A stretch of 7,581 nucleotides of DNA from a virus. Taxonomy: Duplodnaviria; Heunggongvirae; Uroviricota; Caudoviricetes. Of the stretch, positions 1 to 7,581 are shown piece after piece; the stretch's first letter is position 1; each line of letters opens with the position of its first letter. The notes under the pieces are model-generated. The model was given only the letters and a program-made list of their open reading frames with translations, had not been told where the DNA came from and searched no databases. A program made the position numbers and the translations under genes. The stretch lies in IMG/VR virus record IMGVR_UViG_2648501485_000016, positions 1 through 7,581 of that record. The stretch is one strand, 5' to 3'.

Positions 1-33
1 GCACTTTTTATATAAATCTATAATTATATAATT
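1..33 (-). promoter_or_regulatory. AT-rich conserved intergenic motif, copy C (promoter-like; strand uncertain)
   Basis: Plus strand 7-17 is TTTATATAAAT, followed by TATAAT at 19-24. The same core recurs at 1151-1160 and 6474-6484. It lies directly after the methylase stop codon (34-36). Truncated by the window edge. Confidence 0.4.
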
Positions 34-621
34 TTATGCCACTTGCCAGAGAGCATCATGCAACTGGATACCTCCATTGCACTGGTTGCCCCAGCCATGC
101 CAACCATCAGGTAAATCACCGCGAGCAAACAGCTCAATACGAGGAACATCACCTAACAGCCTTACCAGCTTGTCACGAACCACATCAGGCTTCCGAGAAT
201 GCTCCAGACGAGGCGATGTAAACGACTGAATGATCCCCGCATCAAGGCGGGTCGGCAATTTGCCTTTTACCGCAAACAAGCAATCTTCACTGTTTGCACG
301 AGTCATATGCCCCATCCCCATCACCAGCTTATCTGGTTGTCGGCTACCACATTTGTTCCATGTGAAGCCCTTCATGGTCATAAGCCTGAATCCCCATGCT
401 TTCACCACCAGCAACGCTTCTTCTGGCTGAGTCGGAACCCACCACATGGCCAACAAACACGATTCAGGATTAGCAAGCTGCCAGACAGGAATACGAGCAA
501 TATCCTCAGCTTTCATCGTTGGATACTTAAAACCAGCTCCACGATTCCCATCCTTACACTTATCTTTGTATTCCCAGGGGGGATCTGCATAAATCAGATT
601 AAACAATGCAATTGCCTCCAT
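34..621 (-). CDS. DNA N6-adenine methyltransferase, MT-A70 / phage Dam-like family (195 aa)
   Basis: The translation begins MEAIALFNLIYADPPWEY; DPPW is the catalytic motif IV of N6-adenine methyltransferases of the MT-A70 type. ATG at 621-619 is preceded by GGAGG about 10 nt upstream; stop TAA at 36-34. No adjacent restriction endonuclease ORF, so it appears to be an orphan methylase. Confidence 0.8.
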   Translation of the reverse strand: MEAIALFNLIYADPPWEYKDKCKDGNRGAGFKYPTMKAEDIARIPVWQLANPESCLLAMWWVPTQPEEALLVVKAWGFRLMTMKGFTWNKCGSRQPDKLVMGMGHMTRANSEDCLFAVKGKLPTRLDAGIIQSFTSPRLEHSRKPDVVRDKLVRLLGDVPRIELFARGDLPDGWHGWGNQCNGGIQLHDALWQVA

Positions 622-684
622 GTTAGTTGTGCCTCCGGCGCTTATCTCCGGCAGTCATAACGCTGGCCAGCTCTACAGCAGACA

Positions 685-720
685 CAACGAAAAGGGCACT
701 AACCAGACTGATTAATGCCC
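685..720 (-). terminator. Candidate hairpin followed by a short U run (minus-strand transcript), between the tRNA and the methylase
   Basis: Minus-strand RNA: GGGCAUU / 13-nt loop / AGUGCCC, then CUUUUCGUUG. A 7-bp stem including one G-U pair; the loop is long and the U tract short, so this is weak. Confidence 0.25.
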
Positions 721-865
721 TTGCCTGTTGTGTGCCGGATATCGCCCGACAACGCTGTTTTGGTAACACGGCTACAGTTCCGTGCCGCTCCAGCTTTTAC
801 CCCTTTGCGGATAACAGGCCCTGCCTGTACTCACTAACCAACGGCTTCCCGAAATGTGCACCAGG

Positions 866-920
866 CACGCATAAAGATGAGCACGAAGAAGTAACTCCAC
901 CGCGCTTATCTTTATGTGTG
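866..920. repeat. Imperfect inverted repeat (15-bp arms, 25-nt spacer) immediately 3' of the tRNA
   Basis: CATAAAGAT at 870-878 is the exact reverse complement of ATCTTTATG at 908-916; the arms extend to 15 bp with 2 mismatches. No U tract follows on either strand. Confidence 0.4.
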
Positions 921-929
921 AGGGTGAAT

Positions 930-1005
930 TGGTGGCCCCTACCGGATTTGAACCGATGACCGTGCGATTATGAGTCGCCTGCTCTAACCACTAAGCTAAG
1001 GGGCC
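930..1005 (-). tRNA. tRNA with anticodon CAU, closest to the tRNA-Ile2 (lysidine, AUA-decoding) type; elongator Met not excluded
   Basis: The reverse complement of 930-1005 gives a 76-nt sequence: GGCCCCTTAGCTTAGTGGTTAGAGCAGGCGACTCATAATCGCACGGTCATCGGTTCAAATCCGGTAGGGGCCACCA. It has a 7-bp acceptor stem (GGCCCCT/AGGGGCC), a D-arm, an anticodon stem-loop with U33-CAU-A37, a T-arm with GGTTCAAATCC, and an encoded CCA end. The acceptor stem and anticodon arm match my recollection of E. coli ileX; the D and T arms differ. Confidence 0.85.
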
Positions 1006-1016
1006 ATATTTGATTT

Positions 1017-1097
1017 GTTTGTCTGGTGTGGCGCCGCGCACGAAAATCCCAGCCAATAAATTCAGGATTTTTGGGCGCGGCGGCATATCAGACAAAC
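1017..1097. repeat. 81-bp imperfect palindrome (33-bp arms, 15-bp spacer, GC-rich core) between the promoter-like motif and the tRNA
   Basis: The left arm at 1017-1049 (GTTTGTCTGGTGTGGCGCCGCGCACGAAAATCC) matches the reverse complement of the right arm at 1065-1097 (GTTTGTCTGATATGCCGCCGCGCCCAAAAATCC) at 28 of 33 positions. The spacer is CAGCCAATAAATTCA. Confidence 0.7.
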
Positions 1098-1140
1098 ATG
1101 GTTGATGCGTGCGCCCATGAGAAAAGCGCATAGAATGTTG

Positions 1141-1177
1141 TAACTATATATTTATATAATTATAGAAATATATATTA
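1141..1177 (-). promoter_or_regulatory. AT-rich conserved intergenic motif, copy B (promoter-like), after the spanin stop and upstream of the palindrome and tRNA
   Basis: Plus strand 1151-1160 is TTTATATAAT. The minus strand reads ...TTCTATAATTATATAAATATATAG..., containing TATAAT and TATAAATA. Confidence 0.4.
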
Positions 1178-1384
1178 CTTTCGGCAGTTGATTTCCCATG
1201 CCCTGTTATGAGCCAGAATATCTTTCTTTGTCTGGCGGTCCATAACATCGATGTCGTGATCAGTCAGGTAGATGGGCTTTACCCAATCACAGGCGGTATC
1301 AACCACCACCGGGACGCTTCCACGACTCCCGCAGCTCGCGATCAACATCGTCATCAGCCATATGGTTAACACTCTGCTGTACAT
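1175..1384 (-). CDS. Putative o-spanin (Rz1-like outer-membrane lipoprotein, 69 aa)
   Basis: N-terminal signal peptide with a lipobox (LIASC) in MYSRVLTIWLMTMLIASCGS..., and further Cys residues in the short mature part. The gene starts inside the i-spanin gene in a different frame and extends past its end (overlapped architecture). RBS GAGGTG lies about 5 nt before ATG 1384. Confidence 0.6.
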   Translation of the reverse strand: MYSRVLTIWLMTMLIASCGSRGSVPVVVDTACDWVKPIYLTDHDIDVMDRQTKKDILAHNRAWEINCRK

Positions 1385-1577
1385 TCCCCACCTCTTTTGT
1401 CACTTCTATACGCCGCTCCGCAGTGGCTTTTACGGCGGCTGCATTCTCATTAATGCGCTGCTTTTCAGCTTCATCTTCGGCCTTTTCTCGCCCCTTCATA
1501 CGACCAAAACCAAACGCACCGAATGCAACCAATATAACGGTGCCGATAAATGACAAAACGGCTTTCAAACCAGTCAT
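1299..1577 (-). CDS. Putative i-spanin (Rz-like, 92 aa)
   Basis: N-terminal transmembrane segment (LKAVLSFIGTVILVAFGAFGF) followed by a highly charged, probably helical domain. ATG 1577-1575 overlaps the endolysin TGA stop (ATGA). Its position directly after the endolysin and the embedded lipoprotein gene support the call. Confidence 0.6.
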   Translation of the reverse strand: MTGLKAVLSFIGTVILVAFGAFGFGRMKGREKAEDEAEKQRINENAAAVKATAERRIEVTKEVGNVQQSVNHMADDDVDRELRESWKRPGGG

Positions 1578-2116
1578 ACCACCACTCGCTCTTTCATCCA
1601 GCCGTAGACAAACGACTCATTAGCCTCGCGCTTCTCCGCCAGCTCCAGATAGCGTTCGCCCTGCGTACAGTTCAGCGACGTCAGCATCACCCGTTCGCCG
1701 TCTTTTCCCCGATTCCCAAGATAAGCACGTAGCGCATTAATGGTACGTGGACCGATTCGTCCGTCTGCATCCAAATCGGGATACAGCTTCCCGCGCAGGT
1801 TGAACACATTCAGCCAGCGTTGAAGCATTTTTGACGCCACTGTTGGCCCCATGTTCACCCCCGTGTCACACAGCTCTGCGGCAATATCAGAGGATAATGC
1901 GGCCACCTGATCAAAGCGTGGTCCGTACCAGTAATCAGCCTCAAGGATTTCCAGTGCCTGTTCGCGGGTTAAATCGCGCATATCGCCACGGTATCCATGA
2001 GCACGGGCAGTGTTCTGAGTAATGCCCCACTTTGTTGGGCCTCCCTTGTCGTCAGGGTGATCCACATAGCCGCCCTCTTTTCCAAGAACGCTGTTAAAAA
2101 TCTCATCTTTGGTCAT
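1574..2116 (-). CDS. Endolysin, glycoside hydrolase family 108 N-terminal domain with a C-terminal peptidoglycan-binding domain (180 aa)
   Basis: The translation begins MTKDEIFNSVLGKEGGYVDHPDDKGGPTKWGIT, which carries the EGGY...D.GG.T..GI signature of GH108 muramidases. The C-terminal half has the PG_binding_3-like pattern (YPDLDADGRIGPRT). Confidence 0.85.
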   Translation of the reverse strand: MTKDEIFNSVLGKEGGYVDHPDDKGGPTKWGITQNTARAHGYRGDMRDLTREQALEILEADYWYGPRFDQVAALSSDIAAELCDTGVNMGPTVASKMLQRWLNVFNLRGKLYPDLDADGRIGPRTINALRAYLGNRGKDGERVMLTSLNCTQGERYLELAEKREANESFVYGWMKERVVV

Positions 2117-2399
2117 GATTAAACCCTAATGCGTCAACTATCCGCGCCAGATTGCCCCTGAAATACAGAACAACGATGCAGATAATCAGATTTCCAATAA
2201 CCACCAGCCAGTGGGATTCTTGATAAAGACCGAACACATAACGGAAGGGAACATTGGCGTATACAATGACGTAGATATAAGCCAGAAAGGAAACAAATGG
2301 ACGATGCCTGGAGTCTTTCCGTCGATAAAGCATCAGCGCCATTACTATTACTGTGCAAAGCACCGCATTAATCAGTGCTGACGGGTCACTGCTTACCAT
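2103..2399 (-). CDS. Small three-TMD membrane protein, holin or antiholin candidate (98 aa from ATG 2399)
   Basis: Three hydrophobic segments (ALINAVLCTVIVMALMLY, FVSFLAYIYVIVYANV, WLVVIGNLIICIVVLYF) and a charged C-terminus. Strong RBS GGAGGGGG 5 nt before ATG 2399. The longer ORF reading to 2435 has no RBS, so I prefer the internal start. Overlaps the upstream gene by 14 nt and the endolysin by 14 nt. Confidence 0.55.
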   Translation of the reverse strand: MVSSDPSALINAVLCTVIVMALMLYRRKDSRHRPFVSFLAYIYVIVYANVPFRYVFGLYQESHWLVVIGNLIICIVVLYFRGNLARIVDALGFNHDQR

Positions 2400-2781
2400 T
2401 TGAACCCCCTCCACGTAAGCGGGAAAGCATTCCAAAGATGCTACCGAGATCCTGGCTGTTTACGAACGTGAGGATTTTAATTGTCAATGCAGCCACAATA
2501 ACCGCACCAAGCGCATCAAGAGGACGATCGTTGTAGCTGGTCCATTTGGCAAGAAATGAGCCAACTAACGGCGCTCCAATCACTCCAACAATGAACGATG
2601 TAAAGAAATAGCCAATCAGCTTGAGACGGCTAATATTCACCGCTGTAGCAACATAGAAAACAGCGCCAGCAAATGCCCCGAATACAACGCCGTAATCAAT
2701 ACCAGTTGCAATACCAAAAACGCTGGCACCCATCAGGCCACCAGCAGCAACGGCCGTACCGGAAATTGGTTCTGCTGACAT
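2386..2781 (-). CDS. Four-TMD membrane protein, holin candidate (131 aa)
   Basis: Gly/Ala-rich hydrophobic helices (TAVAAGGLMGASVFGIA, YGVVFGAFAGAVFYVATAV, LIGYFFTSFIVGVIGAPLVGSFL, LGAVIVAALTIKIL). RBS GAGGA 5 nt before ATG 2781. It is the first gene of the lysis cassette. Confidence 0.55.
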   Translation of the reverse strand: MSAEPISGTAVAAGGLMGASVFGIATGIDYGVVFGAFAGAVFYVATAVNISRLKLIGYFFTSFIVGVIGAPLVGSFLAKWTSYNDRPLDALGAVIVAALTIKILTFVNSQDLGSIFGMLSRLRGGGSNGKQ

Positions 2782-2794
2782 TGAAATCCTCGTT

Positions 2795-2827
2795 AAAAAA
2801 AAAGCCCCGCCGAAAAAGGCAGGGCTT
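2795..2827 (-). terminator. Rho-independent terminator (minus-strand transcript), immediately upstream of the first lysis gene
   Basis: Minus-strand RNA: AAGCCCUGCC / UUUUUC loop / GGCGGGGCUU followed by 9 U. The stem is 8 GC-rich pairs (one G-U) plus 2 A-U pairs. On the plus strand there is a C-A mismatch and no T tract, so it is unidirectional. The U tract ends 3 nt before the holin RBS. Confidence 0.7.
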
Positions 2828-3010
2828 CATAAAGCAACAAATTACGCGGTAATCGCTTAACGCAGTTTTACTACGTTAAATGAAACACTACACCCAGTTA
2901 CCACCTAAAACAAGGTTTCCCCATAAAAAAACCTTCACAATGTGGTTAATCGATCGATAAAAAAACAATACTTAACTTTTGACCAACCGAACATCCCGAC
3001 CAGGACTTCC

Positions 3011-3039
3011 ATAATATTCGCCGATATGCCACTGCTTAA
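3011..3039 (-). promoter_or_regulatory. Candidate sigma70-type promoter for a roughly 210-nt leader RNA (weak)
   Basis: Minus strand TTAAGC (3039-3034), 17-bp spacer, TATTAT (3016-3011). The -35 element is poor. It sits in the 330-bp untranslated gap between the 119-aa gene and the terminator at 2795-2827. Confidence 0.25.
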
Positions 3040-3111
3040 GTTGAGTAATCTTCTCCAACTTAACTCCCATAGAGTCCAGTTTCTGCCATGTTTTCGGTTG
3101 TATGTGCTTCA

Positions 3112-3471
3112 TTACCCGCTCTGAATATCTGAATACTGCTCGTAAGCGCATGGATTCTCACTACAGCTTATCCAACCACCCGGAGTTACCGAAACTGGCG
3201 GCGCGGCATATAGCTTACGGGTCTGAACACCTGCCCCCTGACATTTCTCTTCCTCAACAAACCATTCGAAAGCACATTCCCCGCAATCTTCCCATTCTCC
3301 CCATTCATCATATTCTGCATCCCACTGGCGATACTGATATGCCACCGGTTCTGCTTCCAGCAAGGCTAACGCTATTTCATAAGCCCGGCGCTCAATATTG
3401 TCTCGCACATCCAAGCGGCCTATGCGCTCTTTGATTTCTTTAATCAGTTCTTTGTCGGTAAAAGTGGTCAT
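3112..3471 (-). CDS. Hypothetical acidic protein with Trp/Glu-rich and Cys-containing segments (119 aa)
   Basis: RBS GAGGA 7 nt before ATG 3471, which overlaps the upstream TGA (ATGA). About 25 Asp+Glu against 12 Lys+Arg. Contains EWGEWEDCGECAFEWFVEEEKC. No recognisable domain. Confidence 0.6.
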   Translation of the reverse strand: MTTFTDKELIKEIKERIGRLDVRDNIERRAYEIALALLEAEPVAYQYRQWDAEYDEWGEWEDCGECAFEWFVEEEKCQGAGVQTRKLYAAPPVSVTPGGWISCSENPCAYEQYSDIQSG

Positions 3472-3677
3472 TTGTTAATCCTCAAAACTTTATGCCCGGG
3501 CGCAAAAGCACGCGTTTTGTCTTTGCTTATTCGCCAGCCATCCTTGCGCGCCTCTTTTGCACAGCCAGCCCATGACGTACCGATATACTCACCGAAGTCT
3601 GGCACTGGATATACACCTTCCGTACACTGGCGGCAGTCACAATAGAGATGCATGGTGTAACTTGCGGCAATAGCCAT
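3468..3677 (-). CDS. Hypothetical small Cys-rich protein (69 aa), possible zinc-binding
   Basis: Strong RBS AAGGAG 6 nt before ATG 3677. Contains HLYCDCRQC ... C. Stop TGA overlaps the next gene's ATG. Confidence 0.55.
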   Translation of the reverse strand: MAIAASYTMHLYCDCRQCTEGVYPVPDFGEYIGTSWAGCAKEARKDGWRISKDKTRAFAPGHKVLRINK

Positions 3678-3678
3678 A

Positions 3679-4308
3679 TCATTCTCCTTTGATGCGAATA
3701 CCAGCAGCGCGGATTGCAGCGATGACTTCAGAAACTTTGTATGCCATTACCGTTTGGTAATCCTCGTGAAAATCTGTTCGATGAAGCATGCTGCTACGTT
3801 CTGGGAGCGATATTTCCCGTGCTTCCAGTTCTGCAATGCGCTTCTCTGCGGATTCCAACGCCGCAACCAATTCGTCTACAGTTCCGGCAGCTTGCAGTGC
3901 GTAATCGGTAATAGCCATCTCATGATCAATTTCAGTACCGTTCTCATTCGTTGAGGTGATAGCAAAATAATCAGAGTCGATTTCGTTATCAGCTAAGTGG
4001 CGTAGCGTATCGGCAACAAGCCGGCCGTTTTCGATTAGCAGCTTCCCTACCGTAAGCGCAATATCCTCGTTCTCCTGGTCGCGGCGTTTGATGTATTGCT
4101 GGTTTCTTTCCCGTTCATCCAGTAGTGCCAGCACGGTTTCTGGTCCGGCCAGAAATTTGAAGGCGTTGAGCGCATCAATATCCACACCGTAATCTTTAAG
4201 TTCCTGTTCACTTAACAAATCATCATCAGCTGGCAACATTAACAGGCGTTCCATTGCTGGAATTGCACGTTCCGCCGCCTCACGCAGTGCCTGATAGTCA
4301 ATTGTCAT
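3679..4308 (-). CDS. Hypothetical strongly acidic protein (about 209 aa from ATG 4308)
   Basis: ATG 4308-4306 overlaps the upstream TGA (ATGA), with AAGGA 8 nt upstream. The ATG at 4317 directly abuts the Shine-Dalgarno sequence, so I prefer 4308. About 44 Asp+Glu against 23 Lys+Arg. No recognisable catalytic motif. Confidence 0.6.
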   Translation of the reverse strand: MTIDYQALREAAERAIPAMERLLMLPADDDLLSEQELKDYGVDIDALNAFKFLAGPETVLALLDERERNQQYIKRRDQENEDIALTVGKLLIENGRLVADTLRHLADNEIDSDYFAITSTNENGTEIDHEMAITDYALQAAGTVDELVAALESAEKRIAELEAREISLPERSSMLHRTDFHEDYQTVMAYKVSEVIAAIRAAGIRIKGE

Positions 4309-4949
4309 TCTCGCCATCCTTCACAGTTGTAATCACTACAGCCTTCAAAATCATATGGGCTGTACTGCCAGGTTATTTTTCCGCAATGCGGACAATTCCA
4401 ACGCACCTTCCCGCTTCGCGACTTCTTTCTTCTGTTCTGCTCTTTCAACCAGTCAGGCATGACCAAACCTGCGCCCTGAACCATTGTTCTGCGGTTAAAG
4501 TTATTGATATTGAACGTCCGGCGCTTTGCTGCATCAGCAATGGAAAATGGCAACCAAACTATTCCTGGTTCGTTTTTGTTGACGACGCTAAAGATGGTCG
4601 CTTTACTGAAGTCATCTGTTGGCAATCCACCGTGTTGAAGCCAGTAAACATCGTTGCCGTTCCAGCTACCTTTTTTGTAGGCCACATACTCAGTGCAATC
4701 TGACTCAATCAGGCTTTCTGTAGGGATGTACTGGCAATCAACGTGCCACACAGCCATTGCATCCACACTATCGGCACAAACAGGCTGATCGATATCTCGC
4801 CCACAATTCCAGGCTTTTTGGGCTTCTTCCAGCGTGTAAATATGAGCGCGATCGATATCAGAACTGTAACCATTGCCGTTATGGCAATGGAATGAGGCGT
4901 TATTACCCACAGTTTCACGCAAGCACATCATGTAAAAACGGTTACTCAC
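4305..4949 (-). CDS. Hypothetical Cys-rich protein with a C-terminal zinc-ribbon-like segment (about 214 aa from GTG 4949)
   Basis: GTG 4949-4947 is preceded by AGGGGG at a 6-nt spacing. The TTG at 4973 listed in the ORF track has no RBS. C-terminus reads ...WNCPHCGKITWQYSPYDFEGCSDYNCEGWRE. Confidence 0.55.
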   Translation of the reverse strand: MSNRFYMMCLRETVGNNASFHCHNGNGYSSDIDRAHIYTLEEAQKAWNCGRDIDQPVCADSVDAMAVWHVDCQYIPTESLIESDCTEYVAYKKGSWNGNDVYWLQHGGLPTDDFSKATIFSVVNKNEPGIVWLPFSIADAAKRRTFNINNFNRRTMVQGAGLVMPDWLKEQNRRKKSRSGKVRWNCPHCGKITWQYSPYDFEGCSDYNCEGWRE

Positions 4950-5625
4950 TGGTTGCCCCCTGAATACGCTCAAACTCGATTACCCACACCCAGGGATTAG
5001 CGTTCCAACTATCTTCGCCATAAATTGATTTCCATAGGCTACGGAAACCTGGGTAATGCTTATCGCCAATGAGGGTCGATTCTGTTGGTGCGCCCTCAGC
5101 CCTTGCATCGCATTCGCTGATATCGTTCAACCGCTCAACGCGCACGTTGGTAATTTCCAGAAGAATGCGCGATGCCCAGCGCGGCATGTGAATTGATGGA
5201 CACCACCCGCCATCAAATTTTTCATTCACAGTGTGAGGTTTCCAGTCGGCATCATCGGGTATCGACCACAAGCCATAATCCCCCGGTTTTTGCTCACAAC
5301 TGGCTCGATAAATCCTTGCTGCGTTCTTCTCATCGCCACGACAAAGGTTGTCGTTCCAGTCCACACTGCAACCATCCTCATTGCCTAATATCGCCCACGC
5401 TTCACGGACCCATATGCGATCACCAACGTTACCGAACGGGCATAAACTATGTTCAGGTGCATCCATAACGTGGGTATAGACACCATTGCGTTTCTTTGTC
5501 GGTTTACGGATAACCAGGCAGTTATCGGCCCTGACATTTTTTACAGGTCGGCGAGTCTGCGTCTTCCTGCCTTCGAGGATGGCCCTAACCATATCGTCAT
5601 TAAAAACAACACCACGTTCTTTCAT
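4942..5625 (-). CDS. ASCH-like (PUA-fold) domain protein with a C-terminal extension (227 aa)
   Basis: N-terminus MVRAILEGRKTQTRRP ... GDRIWVREAW fits the ASCH pattern (G-x-K-x-x-x-x-R, then GD-x-hydrophobic). RBS AAGGTGG 7 nt before ATG 5625, which overlaps the upstream TGA. Confidence 0.6.
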   Translation of the reverse strand: MKERGVVFNDDMVRAILEGRKTQTRRPVKNVRADNCLVIRKPTKKRNGVYTHVMDAPEHSLCPFGNVGDRIWVREAWAILGNEDGCSVDWNDNLCRGDEKNAARIYRASCEQKPGDYGLWSIPDDADWKPHTVNEKFDGGWCPSIHMPRWASRILLEITNVRVERLNDISECDARAEGAPTESTLIGDKHYPGFRSLWKSIYGEDSWNANPWVWVIEFERIQGATSE

Positions 5626-5813
5626 TTAGAAGCCACCTTGTTCAATTTCCGGCGACAAGACACGCAATCATCAGGACTCTCAAAAGTGTCTGGCTCACGG
5701 TAATCACCAAAATACATCCAACGGCCGCAAATGCTGGTTACTTCACCTTCATTAAAATAATGATGTTTATTCGCCTTCATTGGCCTGACCCATCCGGCAT
5801 TTTTCTTGCTCAC
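5622..5813 (-). CDS. Hypothetical small Cys-containing protein (about 63 aa from GTG 5813)
   Basis: GTG 5813-5811 overlaps the upstream TGA (GTGA) and is preceded by GGGAGGAG at a 5-nt spacing. The ORF-track ATG at 5876 has no usable RBS and would overlap the upstream gene by 67 nt. Contains C-x19-C-x2-C. Confidence 0.5.
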   Translation of the reverse strand: MSKKNAGWVRPMKANKHHYFNEGEVTSICGRWMYFGDYREPDTFESPDDCVSCRRKLNKVASK

Positions 5814-6175
5814 TTCAACTCCTCCCGACGACGTTCCTGAAGCTCTAGCATTGCGGCTCGGAAATCCTGCCACCATTCCTCATCTGCAACGGGGGTGTTC
5901 CGCTCCAGCACCTTGTCCGCATCGGCGATCAGGTTTGACAGACTCTTGTCTGAAATCTTCGTTACCGGAGTCGTTGGTTGCTCAACCTGCCCGATAGGTT
6001 TTATCGTGCTCAAAAGGAGGCGACGGCGGGAAAGTGGTGCCCCACAACGACGGCCATCTTCCTTGCGATATGTTTCTTTCGGACCAACACACCAGGTTGT
6101 CGGCGTTTCGCGTAACTTCACTCTTTTCTCACCATCATTGGTAATGATTATTCCGGTATGGGTTTTGATGCTCAT
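5810..6175 (-). CDS. Hypothetical protein (121 aa)
   Basis: RBS GAGAGGGG 7 nt before ATG 6175, which overlaps the upstream TGA (ATGA). Basic N-terminal half, acidic C-terminal half. No recognisable motif. Confidence 0.55.
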   Translation of the reverse strand: MSIKTHTGIIITNDGEKRVKLRETPTTWCVGPKETYRKEDGRRCGAPLSRRRLLLSTIKPIGQVEQPTTPVTKISDKSLSNLIADADKVLERNTPVADEEWWQDFRAAMLELQERRREELK

Positions 6176-6453
6176 GCCACAGCCCCTCTCAACGGCTTTA
6201 CTTTGGCTAATAAGGTGTTAAACAACATGGAGTTAGGATTCATGCCAAATGGCAATTCCGGTTTAGCGGAGTAGTACAGGCAACCATTTATTTTCCTGGT
6301 TGTTATCTGTCCTTCGGCAACCATGCTTCTCAGTCTGCAACGCATAGAGTTCTGCGACACACCAATGTGTTCCGCGATTACGTCCACTTTTGAACATGGG
6401 TGATCGGTCAGGAAATTAATCACATCTTGGGGGTTAATAATTTTGCGTTTCAT
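6172..6453 (-). CDS. Small winged-helix DNA-binding protein (PapI/FaeA-like pattern), first gene of the small-gene operon (93 aa from ATG 6453; alternative ATG 6474)
   Basis: The segment INFLTDHPCSKVDVIAEHIGVSQNSMRCRLRSMVAEGQI fits a helix-turn-helix / winged-helix layout resembling small PapI/FaeA-type regulators. AAGGA lies about 10 nt before ATG 6453. ATG 6474 abuts the AT-rich motif with no Shine-Dalgarno sequence. Confidence 0.55.
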   Translation of the reverse strand: MKRKIINPQDVINFLTDHPCSKVDVIAEHIGVSQNSMRCRLRSMVAEGQITTRKINGCLYYSAKPELPFGMNPNSMLFNTLLAKVKPLRGAVA

Positions 6454-6473
6454 TGTCGAGGCGTCCTTATACA

Positions 6474-6500
6474 TTTATATAAATATATAATTCTATATAC
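6474..6500 (-). promoter_or_regulatory. AT-rich conserved intergenic motif, copy A (promoter-like), immediately upstream of the winged-helix gene
   Basis: Plus strand 6474-6484 is TTTATATAAAT and 6486-6491 is TATAAT. The minus strand reads GTATATAGAATTATATATTTATATAAATG. It sits between the hairpin at 6500-6519 and the first gene of the operon. Confidence 0.45.
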
Positions 6501-6519
6501 GGCGGGAGACATCCCGCCG
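6500..6519 (-). terminator. Perfect 8-bp GC-rich hairpin 11 nt after the stop of the upstream gene (terminator-like; no clean U tract)
   Basis: CGGCGGGA (6500-6507), loop GACA, TCCCGCCG (6512-6519). On the minus strand it is followed by UAUAUAGAAUU. Confidence 0.4.
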
Positions 6520-6530
6520 TAGGCTTACTG

Positions 6531-7581
6531 TCAGGCTTTCAATAGCGATTCTTTCAGATATCGGGCATCAGCCAGGGCGTTTGGAGTAATCTTGCGAACC
6601 CATGCATTACGGGTTGGACTCCACTTAAAGGCGCGTGATTTAAGCAGCGAACGAATGTTTGCCTCTGGTTTGCCAGGGAAATAAAACAGGATGCGGTTAT
6701 CCTCTGGATCTATCTCCATAGAAAAGCCGTCGTATTCTTCGCGCTGTGCTCCTGTTACAGACTTGACCGATTCAAGCTCCTTAATACGGCTCTGTAGTCG
6801 TTTGATTTCGGCATTATTGTTACTCAGTGAGTATGAAGGGAAGCCAATGTGCCCACAGAAATCTCCGGCGAGTAACCCTTTGGCTTCGCTTTCAGTAAAC
6901 TCAAGGTCAATTAATGCGGAAAGCTGCTGTAATTGGTCTTTTTTGTATTTGCGAATAGCCTTATTTGCGGCCTTCATTTTGATGTGTGACTTCATGCAGC
7001 CTTGCAGCTTACGAAGCAACTTAAATAGCGCATCAGGATCATCAGACGAAACTCCATTACGGCCGACACCTGCGGCTTTGCTTTCGTAGTACGATGCTCT
7101 GCTTTCACACTCAACAAACGATTTTCTGAATAACGCATCAGCTTTAGACAAACGGCGGCGATGGCCTTTCGCGCTATAATGGTCAACTAAAATCGGCTGG
7201 CCTAACGGGATCACATCCAACAGTTCATGCGCTCGCTTATGCGCCACCGCACCTTCTTTTCTGGCTTTTTCTGCACGAGCAATATATCGGGCAAGACGCG
7301 CGTTCTGGCGTTCCTGATAGGTATTTACGTAATCATCTCCGCGCTGCTGCTGTTCAAGCCATGCTTTGCGCAGCTTTTCTGTTACGTCTACCAACTCTGC
7401 AGGGATACAACCTGTTTGGGATTCATAAGAGTGACCATCCTCATAAAGACGTCCATCGTCTTCAACAACGAAAAAGGTTTCGTGCTCATCGCTTTTGACC
7501 ATACGGCCATTAACATGACGTAATCTATAGCCAGTATCAGTGCTCAACAGGCTGTTAGGGTTGTTGATCCAGTCAGAAATA
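6531..7581 (-). CDS. Hypothetical protein, 3' portion only (at least 350 aa; continues beyond the window edge); possible DUF3560-like region
   Basis: The reading frame stays open from the TGA at 6531 to the window end. The ORF-track start at 7547 is a TTG with no RBS, so the true start is upstream of the window. The motif LGQPILVDHYSAKGHRRR resembles what I recall of DUF3560; this is unverified. Confidence 0.65.
   Translation of the reverse strand, partial: ISDWINNPNSLLSTDTGYRLRHVNGRMVKSDEHETFFVVEDDGRLYEDGHSYESQTGCIPAELVDVTEKLRKAWLEQQQRGDDYVNTYQERQNARLARYIARAEKARKEGAVAHKRAHELLDVIPLGQPILVDHYSAKGHRRRLSKADALFRKSFVECESRASYYESKAAGVGRNGVSSDDPDALFKLLRKLQGCMKSHIKMKAANKAIRKYKKDQLQQLSALIDLEFTESEAKGLLAGDFCGHIGFPSYSLSNNNAEIKRLQSRIKELESVKSVTGAQREEYDGFSMEIDPEDNRILFYFPGKPEANIRSLLKSRAFKWSPTRNAWVRKITPNALADARYLKESLLKA

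Follow-up and report, generated by a model that had tools for sequence, protein, structure and literature searches.

The DNA considered here is a stretch of 7,581 nucleotides (the window) from a tailed virus of the Caudoviricetes (IMG/VR record IMGVR_UViG_2648501485_000016, positions 1 to 7,581). It is part of a phage-plasmid and matches circular, non-mobilizable Escherichia coli plasmids of ~48-49 kb that carry a complete myovirus gene set together with repA and parA. The closest match to the window is CP025877.1 (99.2% identity), NZ_CP028194.1 is an annotated relative, and Yersinia phages vB_YpM_41, 44 and 39 match at 96-97%. The genes of the window are all on the minus strand. In the direction of transcription, the 3' end of a DUF3560 gene is followed by the gene for a 93-residue protein (p93), several small genes that include a mosaic Ea22/DUF551 segment, a strong terminator, the holins, endolysin and spanins, tRNA-Met, and an MT-A70 methyltransferase gene (Table 1). 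Three AT-rich repeat arrays lie at boundaries between these units. As judged from sequence comparison, they are likely to be three of eight dispersed centromere/operator arrays for the element's own partition protein, a type Ib, ParG-like protein of 82 residues (p82).

Each of the three copies is an array of 32 bp made up of four 8-bp units in tandem, each unit being a TATA box with a 4-bp KAWT spacer. The original prediction had described them as three copies of an AT-rich motif with a TATAAT-like box, and all three are indeed present. The sequence TTTATATAA has 5 matches (both strands) at three loci of the window compared with 0.08 expected, and 0 of 200 shuffles reach 5. Its plus-strand matches are at 7, 1151 and 6474, those on the minus strand at 8-16 and 6475-6483. 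It also holds for the window that these are the only such elements in 7.6 kb. The true unit exceeds the core that was first noted. Copies A and C have that core as the perfect 10-bp palindrome TTTATATAAA, and the sense strand of copy B reads ATTATATAAA; the core is just the most palindromic portion of the longer repeat.

The copies had been placed directly after stop codons, at the boundaries of transcription units, which is true in the direction of transcription, i.e., on the minus strand. In array A the stop is inside the array: the unit CATAAAAT contains the TAA of the MT-A70 gene (36-34), and AAGTGC at 6-1 follows the array. Array B abuts its stop, beginning one base past the Rz1-like open reading frame (ORF) of the lysis cassette, with a long hairpin and tRNA-Met downstream of it. 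For array C the stop at 6531 is followed by a hairpin and then by the array. The general order is hairpin or stop codon, array, and then promoter or ribosome-binding site (RBS). The hairpin before array C is a minimum free energy (MFE) structure, with z = -2.8 for an 82-nt stretch, and analogous hairpins are found upstream of the parA-proximal arrays in L002, L005, L006, L008, L009 and L011 (L numbers denote the loci compared). Array B is kept in L001-L003 and L015, and array C is also present in L001, L002 and L003.

Table 1. Repeat arrays of the window and the features that adjoin them.
Feature	Position	Strand	Remarks
Array A	7..38	-	Units CATAAAAT (38-31), TATATAAT (30-23), TATAGATT (22-15), TATATAAA (14-7)
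MT-A70 family DNA methyltransferase gene	34..621	-	Unit ending inside array A (stop 34-36)
tRNA-Met (CAT)	930..1005	-	In unit downstream of array B
Array B	1143..1174	-	Units TATATATT (1174-1167), TCTATAAT (1166-1159), TATATAAA (1158-1151), TATATAGT (1150-1143)
Rz1-like o-spanin ORF, lipobox LIASC	1175..1384	-	Last lysis-cassette gene; stop 1175-1177 abuts array B
Gene p93, 93-residue winged-helix MarR-like protein	6172..6453	-	Annotated 282-nt coding sequence; first gene downstream of array C
Array C	6466..6497	-	Units TATAGAAT (6497-6490), TATATATT (6489-6482), TATATAAA (6481-6474), TGTATAAG (6473-6466)
Terminator-like hairpin, 10-bp G+C-rich stem	6498..6521	-	Between DUF3560 gene and array C, directly adjoining both
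DUF3560-domain gene, 3' part	6531..7581	-	Runs past right end of window; unit ending before array C

The motif recurs in the rest of the genome, where TTATATAAA is found 16-18 times per complete relative compared with ~0.9 expected. A scan for four in-phase TATA units detects exactly eight arrays per complete relative and 0 in 100 Markov shuffles. A position weight matrix (PWM) built from the units scores 40-50 bits at the arrays and at most 9.2 in shuffles. For lags 5-12, self-similarity is strong at lag 8 only. When 28 units are compared, T1, T3 and A4 are invariant and A2 occurs in 26. Position 5 is either T or G, and the G (9 of the 28 units) appears on the sense strand only. The arrays are therefore directional. 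The original prediction had called the motif partly palindromic with the strand unsettled; the palindrome stands, for the core of copies A and C, and this G gives the arrays a direction.

Each of the eight arrays lies between genes and has the orientation of its neighbours. They contain 94-100% A+T and many TpA steps. Three of them bracket the par operon (parA and the p82 gene), which is outside the window; one is upstream of the predicted parA promoter, one in the parA leader, and one in the parA/p82 spacer. The five arrays outside the par locus are dispersed over ~17 kb. Three of these adjoin the -35 of promoter cassettes that are nearly identical, and the other two lie before p93 and after the lysis cassette.

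Most arrays occur in one of two contexts. Arrays of class I have a sigma70-like promoter site just downstream, with 4-6 bp between the end of the array and the -35; for three of them the site is TTTACA-17 bp-TAAGGT, relative to which they span about -42 to -73, and for one, at parA, it is TTTTCA-17-TATGCT. Copy A belongs to this class, since in complete relatives it ends 6 bp upstream of TTTACA-17 bp-TAAGGT, just past the left edge of the window. The hexamers score 8/12 and are not called by a simple sigma70 scan, so that the assignment rests on their conserved position across relatives. In class II the array runs straight into the ribosome-binding region, 0-14 nt upstream of the Shine-Dalgarno sequence. 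The parA-leader array (predicted to be transcribed), the parA/p82 spacer array and copy C (before p93, with its Shine-Dalgarno AAGGA at 6464-6468) are of this type. Copy B, placed between the lysis cassette and the tRNA unit with no RBS directly after it, fits neither class exactly. The original remark that the window copies contain no good -35 is accurate, and copies B and C have no -35/-10 hexamers at 17±1 bp downstream.

The promoter cassettes of class I have other features. A triplicated, near-identical cassette, which consists of array, promoter and a ~60-nt leader (TATACCCGAAACCGAGCGATACCCGCCCTGGTTAAACCGGAG...), precedes three unrelated genes (L002 14031-14145, 23412-23525 and 30660-30775). 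In the three cassettes and in one further promoter, the spacer between -35 and -10 is filled by another conserved site, TGGGAAAAAATTTCCTA, an imperfect palindrome of ~17 bp. Its sites in L002 are at 14077-14091, 23458-23472, 30708-30722 and 12050-12064 (4 compared with 0.08 expected). All four are outside the window, the third ~30 bp past its left edge. The Serratia element has TAGGAAAAAAAGTCCTA at the equivalent place. TGGGAAAAAATTTCCTA is probably the operator of another repressor.

Class II arrays are followed by an initiation region of the form AAGGA-N(5-6)-CTCGACA(A)ATG, seen in the window at 6451-6468 (minus strand), at the parA start of L002, and in L005 at 22110 and 27713. It is conserved between different genes and among the E. 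coli, Salmonella and Serratia elements, which suggests a shared RBS module that may travel together with the array.

In complete relatives the parA gene encodes a 217-residue ParA (a Walker ATPase with CbiA/ParA/MipZ matches only and no extra domain), and the gene for p82 follows it. p82 belongs to PHROGs family 6024, to which no function is assigned there and for which there is no Pfam model. An exhaustive hidden Markov model (HMM) search gives ~100 relatives of 60-90 residues. The family is characterized by a basic N-terminal K..KG.PP and a C-terminal LNFKV..EF.REFK..AA....SM.ELL...FE..K. When 86 members were scanned individually with Pfam, ribbon-helix-helix (RHH) models were matched by some of them: RHH_10 by 25, Antitox_RHH by 10, 56B_RHH by 3 and ParG by 2. 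The three best PDB sequence matches to the family profile are a 56B RHH protein, a CopG-family protein and ParG (1P94), and hhalign aligns the family with ParG in the RHH register (E = 1.3e-4). In an AlphaFold2 (AF2) model from a deep alignment, residues 1-40 are low-confidence coil while residues 41-80 have a confidence score (pLDDT) of 91-97, with helices at 47-59 and 64-80. The top Foldseek matches to this model in the PDB are nearly all RHH domains (PutA, CdbA, CopG, AmrZ, Arc, ParD), with target TM scores of 0.65-0.86 for the best of them. Each of these lines is soft singly; together they make a moderately strong case that p82 has a ParG-like architecture, a flexible N-terminal tail joined to an RHH domain. 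No paper linking phage-plasmids with an RHH centromere protein or describing the p82 family was found in the literature library searched.

Twelve further p82-family loci were read, with the repeat phasing done partly by eye. The parA-RHH gene pair is present in 9 of 11 other loci, the remaining two (L013 and L014) being too short for a complete parA. In 11 further loci tandem repeats with a 4/8-bp period adjoin the RHH gene, and in the nine that cover the region upstream of parA the repeats are beside or around the parA promoter. In Salmonella relatives p82 is ~90% identical, and TATA arrays are kept at eight syntenic sites in spite of only ~71% identity in the flanking DNA and genes; array C with its RBS is 46/47 identical (by eye). 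A Serratia phage-plasmid with a 40% identical RHH protein has a syntenic early/par region and a different tail module. Its six arrays occur in both class I and class II contexts, and have the units TAAATAWW and TATTTAAA, never with TA at positions 3-4. The E. coli PWM finds no array in this element.

Repeat units in the other lineages differ further. They are TTTAAATA / TTTATTTC in L006, TCTTTAAW in L009, TTCTTTAA in L011 (also between parA and the RHH gene), TATATAAA / TACATATT in L008, TTCGCTAA / TTAGCGAA in L007, and TTCGTTAA plus TTTATTTC in L010; those of L012 are CATG-type, and those of the short contigs L013 and L014 are TGTAC-type. By RHH lineage, the box is TATA in E. coli and Salmonella, TAAA/TATT in Serratia, and CTTT, TCGC/TCGT, CATG or GTAC elsewhere. 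These boxes track the predicted DNA-reading β-strand of the protein, which is QMAFNVD in E. coli and PMNFNMD in Serratia. A/T-F-N is found with TATA, N-F-N with A/T-only boxes, and K-F-G/A with GTAC; N-F-K occurs mostly with C/G-containing boxes, with the exception of L011 (SKNFKVS with TTCTTTAA). Repeat sequence and RHH protein co-vary across the 11 other loci, L010 being ambiguous. In L010 a perfect 5-6x TTTATTTC 8-bp array lies at 9015-9064, ~270 bp upstream of parA, and TTCGTTAA-type repeats are at the promoter.

The distribution of repeats over whole replicons is also informative. The phage-plasmid relatives L005 (Serratia), L006, L009 and L011 have extra dispersed arrays, each of its own type. 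Type IV coupling-protein genes are present in L010 and L012, a phage backbone is not, and repeats occur there at the par locus only. Each is available over ~20 kb, within which the parA-RHH pair is the only obvious element in common with the replicon of the window. This favours the RHH protein as the reader of the arrays over p93, a 124-residue protein (p124) encoded upstream of parA, or the cI-like repressor. A natural swap of the par module, with the DUF3560-p93 junction kept and p82 lost, was looked for in PLSDB; counts suggest that there is none (61 and 63 records, apparently the same plasmids).

In the proposed mechanism, which is modelled on ParG and omega, one p82 RHH dimer would dock on each TATA box through its β-ribbon. 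Adjacent dimers would bind cooperatively, so that about four coat each array, and their disordered basic N-terminal tails would engage ParA. The arrays around parA could then act as both centromere and auto-operator. Because of their positions at transcription units, the arrays are also proposed to be operators or insulators. Those at unit boundaries probably regulate transcription, and p82 bound outside the par locus would probably repress or insulate the adjacent units, repression being the assumed direction. Expression of blocks of genes would thereby be tied to the level of the partition protein.

Such a system is recognisable as a type Ib partition module, and scattered or multi-promoter sites have precedent in omega, KorB and N15 SopB. 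Tandem 8-bp units are also characteristic of the met-boxes of MetJ, where one RHH dimer occupies each unit and neighbouring dimers make cooperative contacts. The arrays resemble the MetJ operators in their tandem 8-bp units, but MetJ is a chromosomal metabolic repressor with a co-repressor and an AGACGTCT box, and it has no ParA partner. The ParG sites of TP228 are tetramer ACTC boxes with 4-bp AT-rich spacers, bind one dimer per box, and function as centromere and operator (PMC3130281). In ParG-parH/OF, as in the phage-plasmid, the gene for a small ParA-type ATPase is followed by that for a protein of ~80 residues with a flexible N-terminal tail and C-terminal RHH (PDB 1P94), and tetramer boxes and 4-bp spacers in an 8-bp register are located at the par promoter. 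In contrast to ParG, the box here is TATA rather than ACTC, the arrays have four units and not 8-12, five further arrays are dispersed over ~17 kb, and the replicon is a phage-plasmid; the similarity between the proteins is marginal (hhalign E = 1.3e-4, probability 54%).

The omega protein (ParB) of pSM19035 is another RHH protein with repeat arrays (parS) at several separate promoters; besides binding the centromere, it is a common regulator of maintenance genes. Its parS sites overlap several promoters (PMC5016525), and activation of ParA needs at least 4 contiguous repeats (PMC9499535), a need that the four-unit arrays match. However, omega reads 7-bp heptads on a Firmicute plasmid at three promoter types, while the phage-plasmid has 8-bp units at eight sites in two contexts, abutting either a -35 or an RBS. 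Partition-protein sites scattered over the genome are known for N15 SopB (IR1-4) and RK2/RP4 KorB (OB) (PMC5016525, PMC7205306). N15 is itself a phage-plasmid, but SopB and KorB are large helix-turn-helix (HTH) ParB/KorB proteins (type Ia) on single palindromes, whereas p82 would be a small RHH protein (type Ib) on tandem direct repeats.

Several points weigh against p82 as the reader of these arrays. Its gene is not in the window, and its binding to the arrays is inferred from comparison. The RHH assignment is statistically soft. For example, p82 alone finds no match in Pfam or among PDB sequences, the hhalign probability against ParG is 54%, the AF2 monomer shows no β-strand, and the Foldseek E-values are at least 0.3. 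The three class I cassettes are duplicates of each other and so do not count as independent evidence. The covariation table rests on by-eye phasing for 11 lineages, whole upstream regions also give signal at lag 4 and lag 12, and the par locus of L010 carries two repeat types. All other proteins of the element also diverge between E. coli and Serratia, and covariation alone has no power to single out p82. The argument for p82 therefore depends on the non-phage plasmids that share only parA-RHH. In addition, TATA-rich arrays are intrinsically -10-like and UP-like, and host RNA polymerase or nucleoid proteins may also read them.

Other explanations of the arrays begin with the promoter readings offered originally, i.e., sigma70 promoters with UP-like AT tracts or sites for a phage-specific factor. 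If the arrays were host sigma70 promoter elements without a dedicated protein, class I arrays would be UP elements and class II arrays clusters of TATAAT-like -10 sequences. The position of class I arrays, copy A among them, agrees with this, as does the A-run just upstream of the -35, which is like a proximal UP subsite. Units such as TATATAAT contain perfect -10 hexamers, and a simple scan gives TATAAT-containing matches inside the par-proximal arrays. Yet UP elements do not require a strict 8-bp register and invariant TATA boxes, arrays are also found within the parA leader, which is predicted to be transcribed, and in the parA/p82 spacer, and homologous parA-RHH modules have, at the same positions, non-TATA and even G+C-containing units (TTCGCTAA, GCATG, TGTAC) that cannot be -10 or UP sequences. 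In the window, sigma70-like matches are fewer than in shuffles and none is at an array. The UP-like tract agrees in position for copy A and class I, with weak hexamers, and does not for copies B and C. It is unlikely that host promoter elements account for the arrays. With late or middle promoters for a phage-specific sigma factor or RNA polymerase, in the style of T4 gp55 and TATAAATA, the arrays share AT-richness, a promoter-proximal location and the lack of an internal -35, traits also of rrn-type UP elements. The arrays do not have the T4 late features, and match UP elements in position only. TATAAATA is present in two of the three window copies, at 1149-1156 (minus strand, copy B) and 6478-6485 (plus strand, copy C). 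The two matches differ in strand, none is in copy A, and their number is not above chance (7 of 200 shuffles reach 2). The annotation of NZ_CP028194.1, with 68 coding sequences, lists no sigma factor or RNA polymerase (an annotation count, not an exhaustive profile search of every ORF), and the sole sigma-like trace is a sub-threshold Sigma70_r4-like HTH in a 94-residue protein. Arrays also flank parA, a plasmid-maintenance gene, and occur in non-phage plasmids. A late-promoter role is highly improbable. What stands of the phage-specific factor is that one encoded by the element explains the arrays better than chance AT-richness; a partition or repressor protein is likelier than a sigma or transcription-initiation factor.

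A different regulator of the element could be that factor, namely p93, p124 or a small HTH protein. p93 is a predicted DNA-binding protein encoded directly downstream of array C, and all of these candidates, like p82, diverge between the E. coli and Serratia elements. The usual target of a winged-helix or HTH dimer is a dyad of 16-20 bp, and four direct 8-bp units are unlike such sites. Moreover, arrays of the same architecture flank parA in L010 and L012, where no p93 or p124 homologue is evident in the called genes, and the cI-like repressor has sites of another kind (ACCACA-N4-GTGGT-type) in the divergent promoter region. Another regulator is an unlikely candidate, with chances as low as those of the host promoter elements. 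Finally, the arrays might work with no dedicated protein, as AT-rich, curved or easily melted DNA that insulates units when bound by the host nucleoid proteins H-NS, IHF or Fis, or (class II) as AU-rich RNA leaders that raise translation through S1 binding or are RNase E sites. Their base composition, with its many TpA steps, and the short distance of class II arrays to the Shine-Dalgarno sequence are compatible with this. It accounts neither for the exact 8-bp register and the length of four units nor for the G on one strand at position 5, the repeats particular to each lineage and the class I arrays upstream of promoters, and has little likelihood. P1 Lpa-type late promoters (a -10 together with a dyad at -22) were considered as an analogue and set aside in view of the 8-bp arrays and their association with par. 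A role as iterons or origin was rejected because RepA is encoded elsewhere and the arrays are dispersed.

The partition reading, if correct, gives both a conspicuous motif and a protein family without annotation (PHROG 6024) a function that can be tested, and would extend the RHH centromere-binding proteins by one that reads TATA boxes. The protein and site pairs that occur in nature (TATA, TAAA/TATT, CTTT, TCGY, CATG, GTAC) could be used for studies of β-ribbon DNA recognition or for orthogonal repressors. If the dispersed arrays do regulate transcription, plasmid partition would be linked to the control of phage genes, for which the dispersed N15 SopB sites are a partial precedent. There is also a caution for annotation: AT-rich, TATAAT-like repeats should not be called phage promoters before the whole replicon has been checked.

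A more speculative extension, rather unlikely as a whole, is that p82 is a genome-wide organiser. The eight arrays would be p82-dependent locks or insulators on internal promoters and read-through, punctuating the path of transcription from the cI-controlled early operon toward the virion genes. Lytic replication would multiply the arrays and titrate the autoregulated pool of p82, and the units would switch on; copy-number sensing would in this way couple partition to lysis-lysogeny. If this were true, partition and the lysis-lysogeny programme would be mechanistically coupled via one small RHH protein.

Other features of the window do not bear directly on the arrays. A very stable imperfect hairpin of ~80 nt occupies 1018-1098 (minus strand), between array B and tRNA-Met. 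Its MFE is -49.2 kcal/mol over a 137-nt stretch (z = -5.2), and 0 of 200 shuffles fold equally well. Rfam has no family match for it, the tRNA being the sole match in a scan of the window. The hairpin may be a small RNA, act as a terminator or attenuator, or belong to the tRNA precursor or its processing.

A strong intrinsic terminator (11-bp stem with 7 G-C pairs and a T9 tail) is located at 2801-2828 (minus strand), directly upstream of the two holin genes. Because of this position, the lysis cassette probably needs antitermination or a promoter of its own. No Q-like gene was identified. At the other end of the cassette, the overlapping ORFs 1175-1384 and 1299-1577 (minus strand) resemble an Rz/Rz1-type spanin pair, one of 69 residues with a lipobox (LIASC) and one of 92 residues with an N-terminal transmembrane segment. 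Only the 92-residue ORF is annotated in relatives. As for p93, it matches phrog_1687 'MarR family' in PHROGs with E = 3e-31, and its Pfam matches to winged-helix models are weak.

The mosaic segment at ~3460-5440 (Ea22-like, DUF551 and neighbouring small genes) is 94-98% identical to sequences of P1, P7, RCS47, SJ46 and many Stx-converting phages. This identity indicates recent exchange between unrelated phages and phage-plasmids. Membership of the element in the pSLy3 group was considered and is wrong, that group being SSU5-related. The element has been found in ~60 sequenced enterobacterial plasmids and in infectious Yersinia phages. For example, E. coli ATCC 25922, a widely used quality-control strain, carries a member of the family as plasmid NZ_CP009073.1 (48,488 bp), in which p82 is 98% identical and array C is present.

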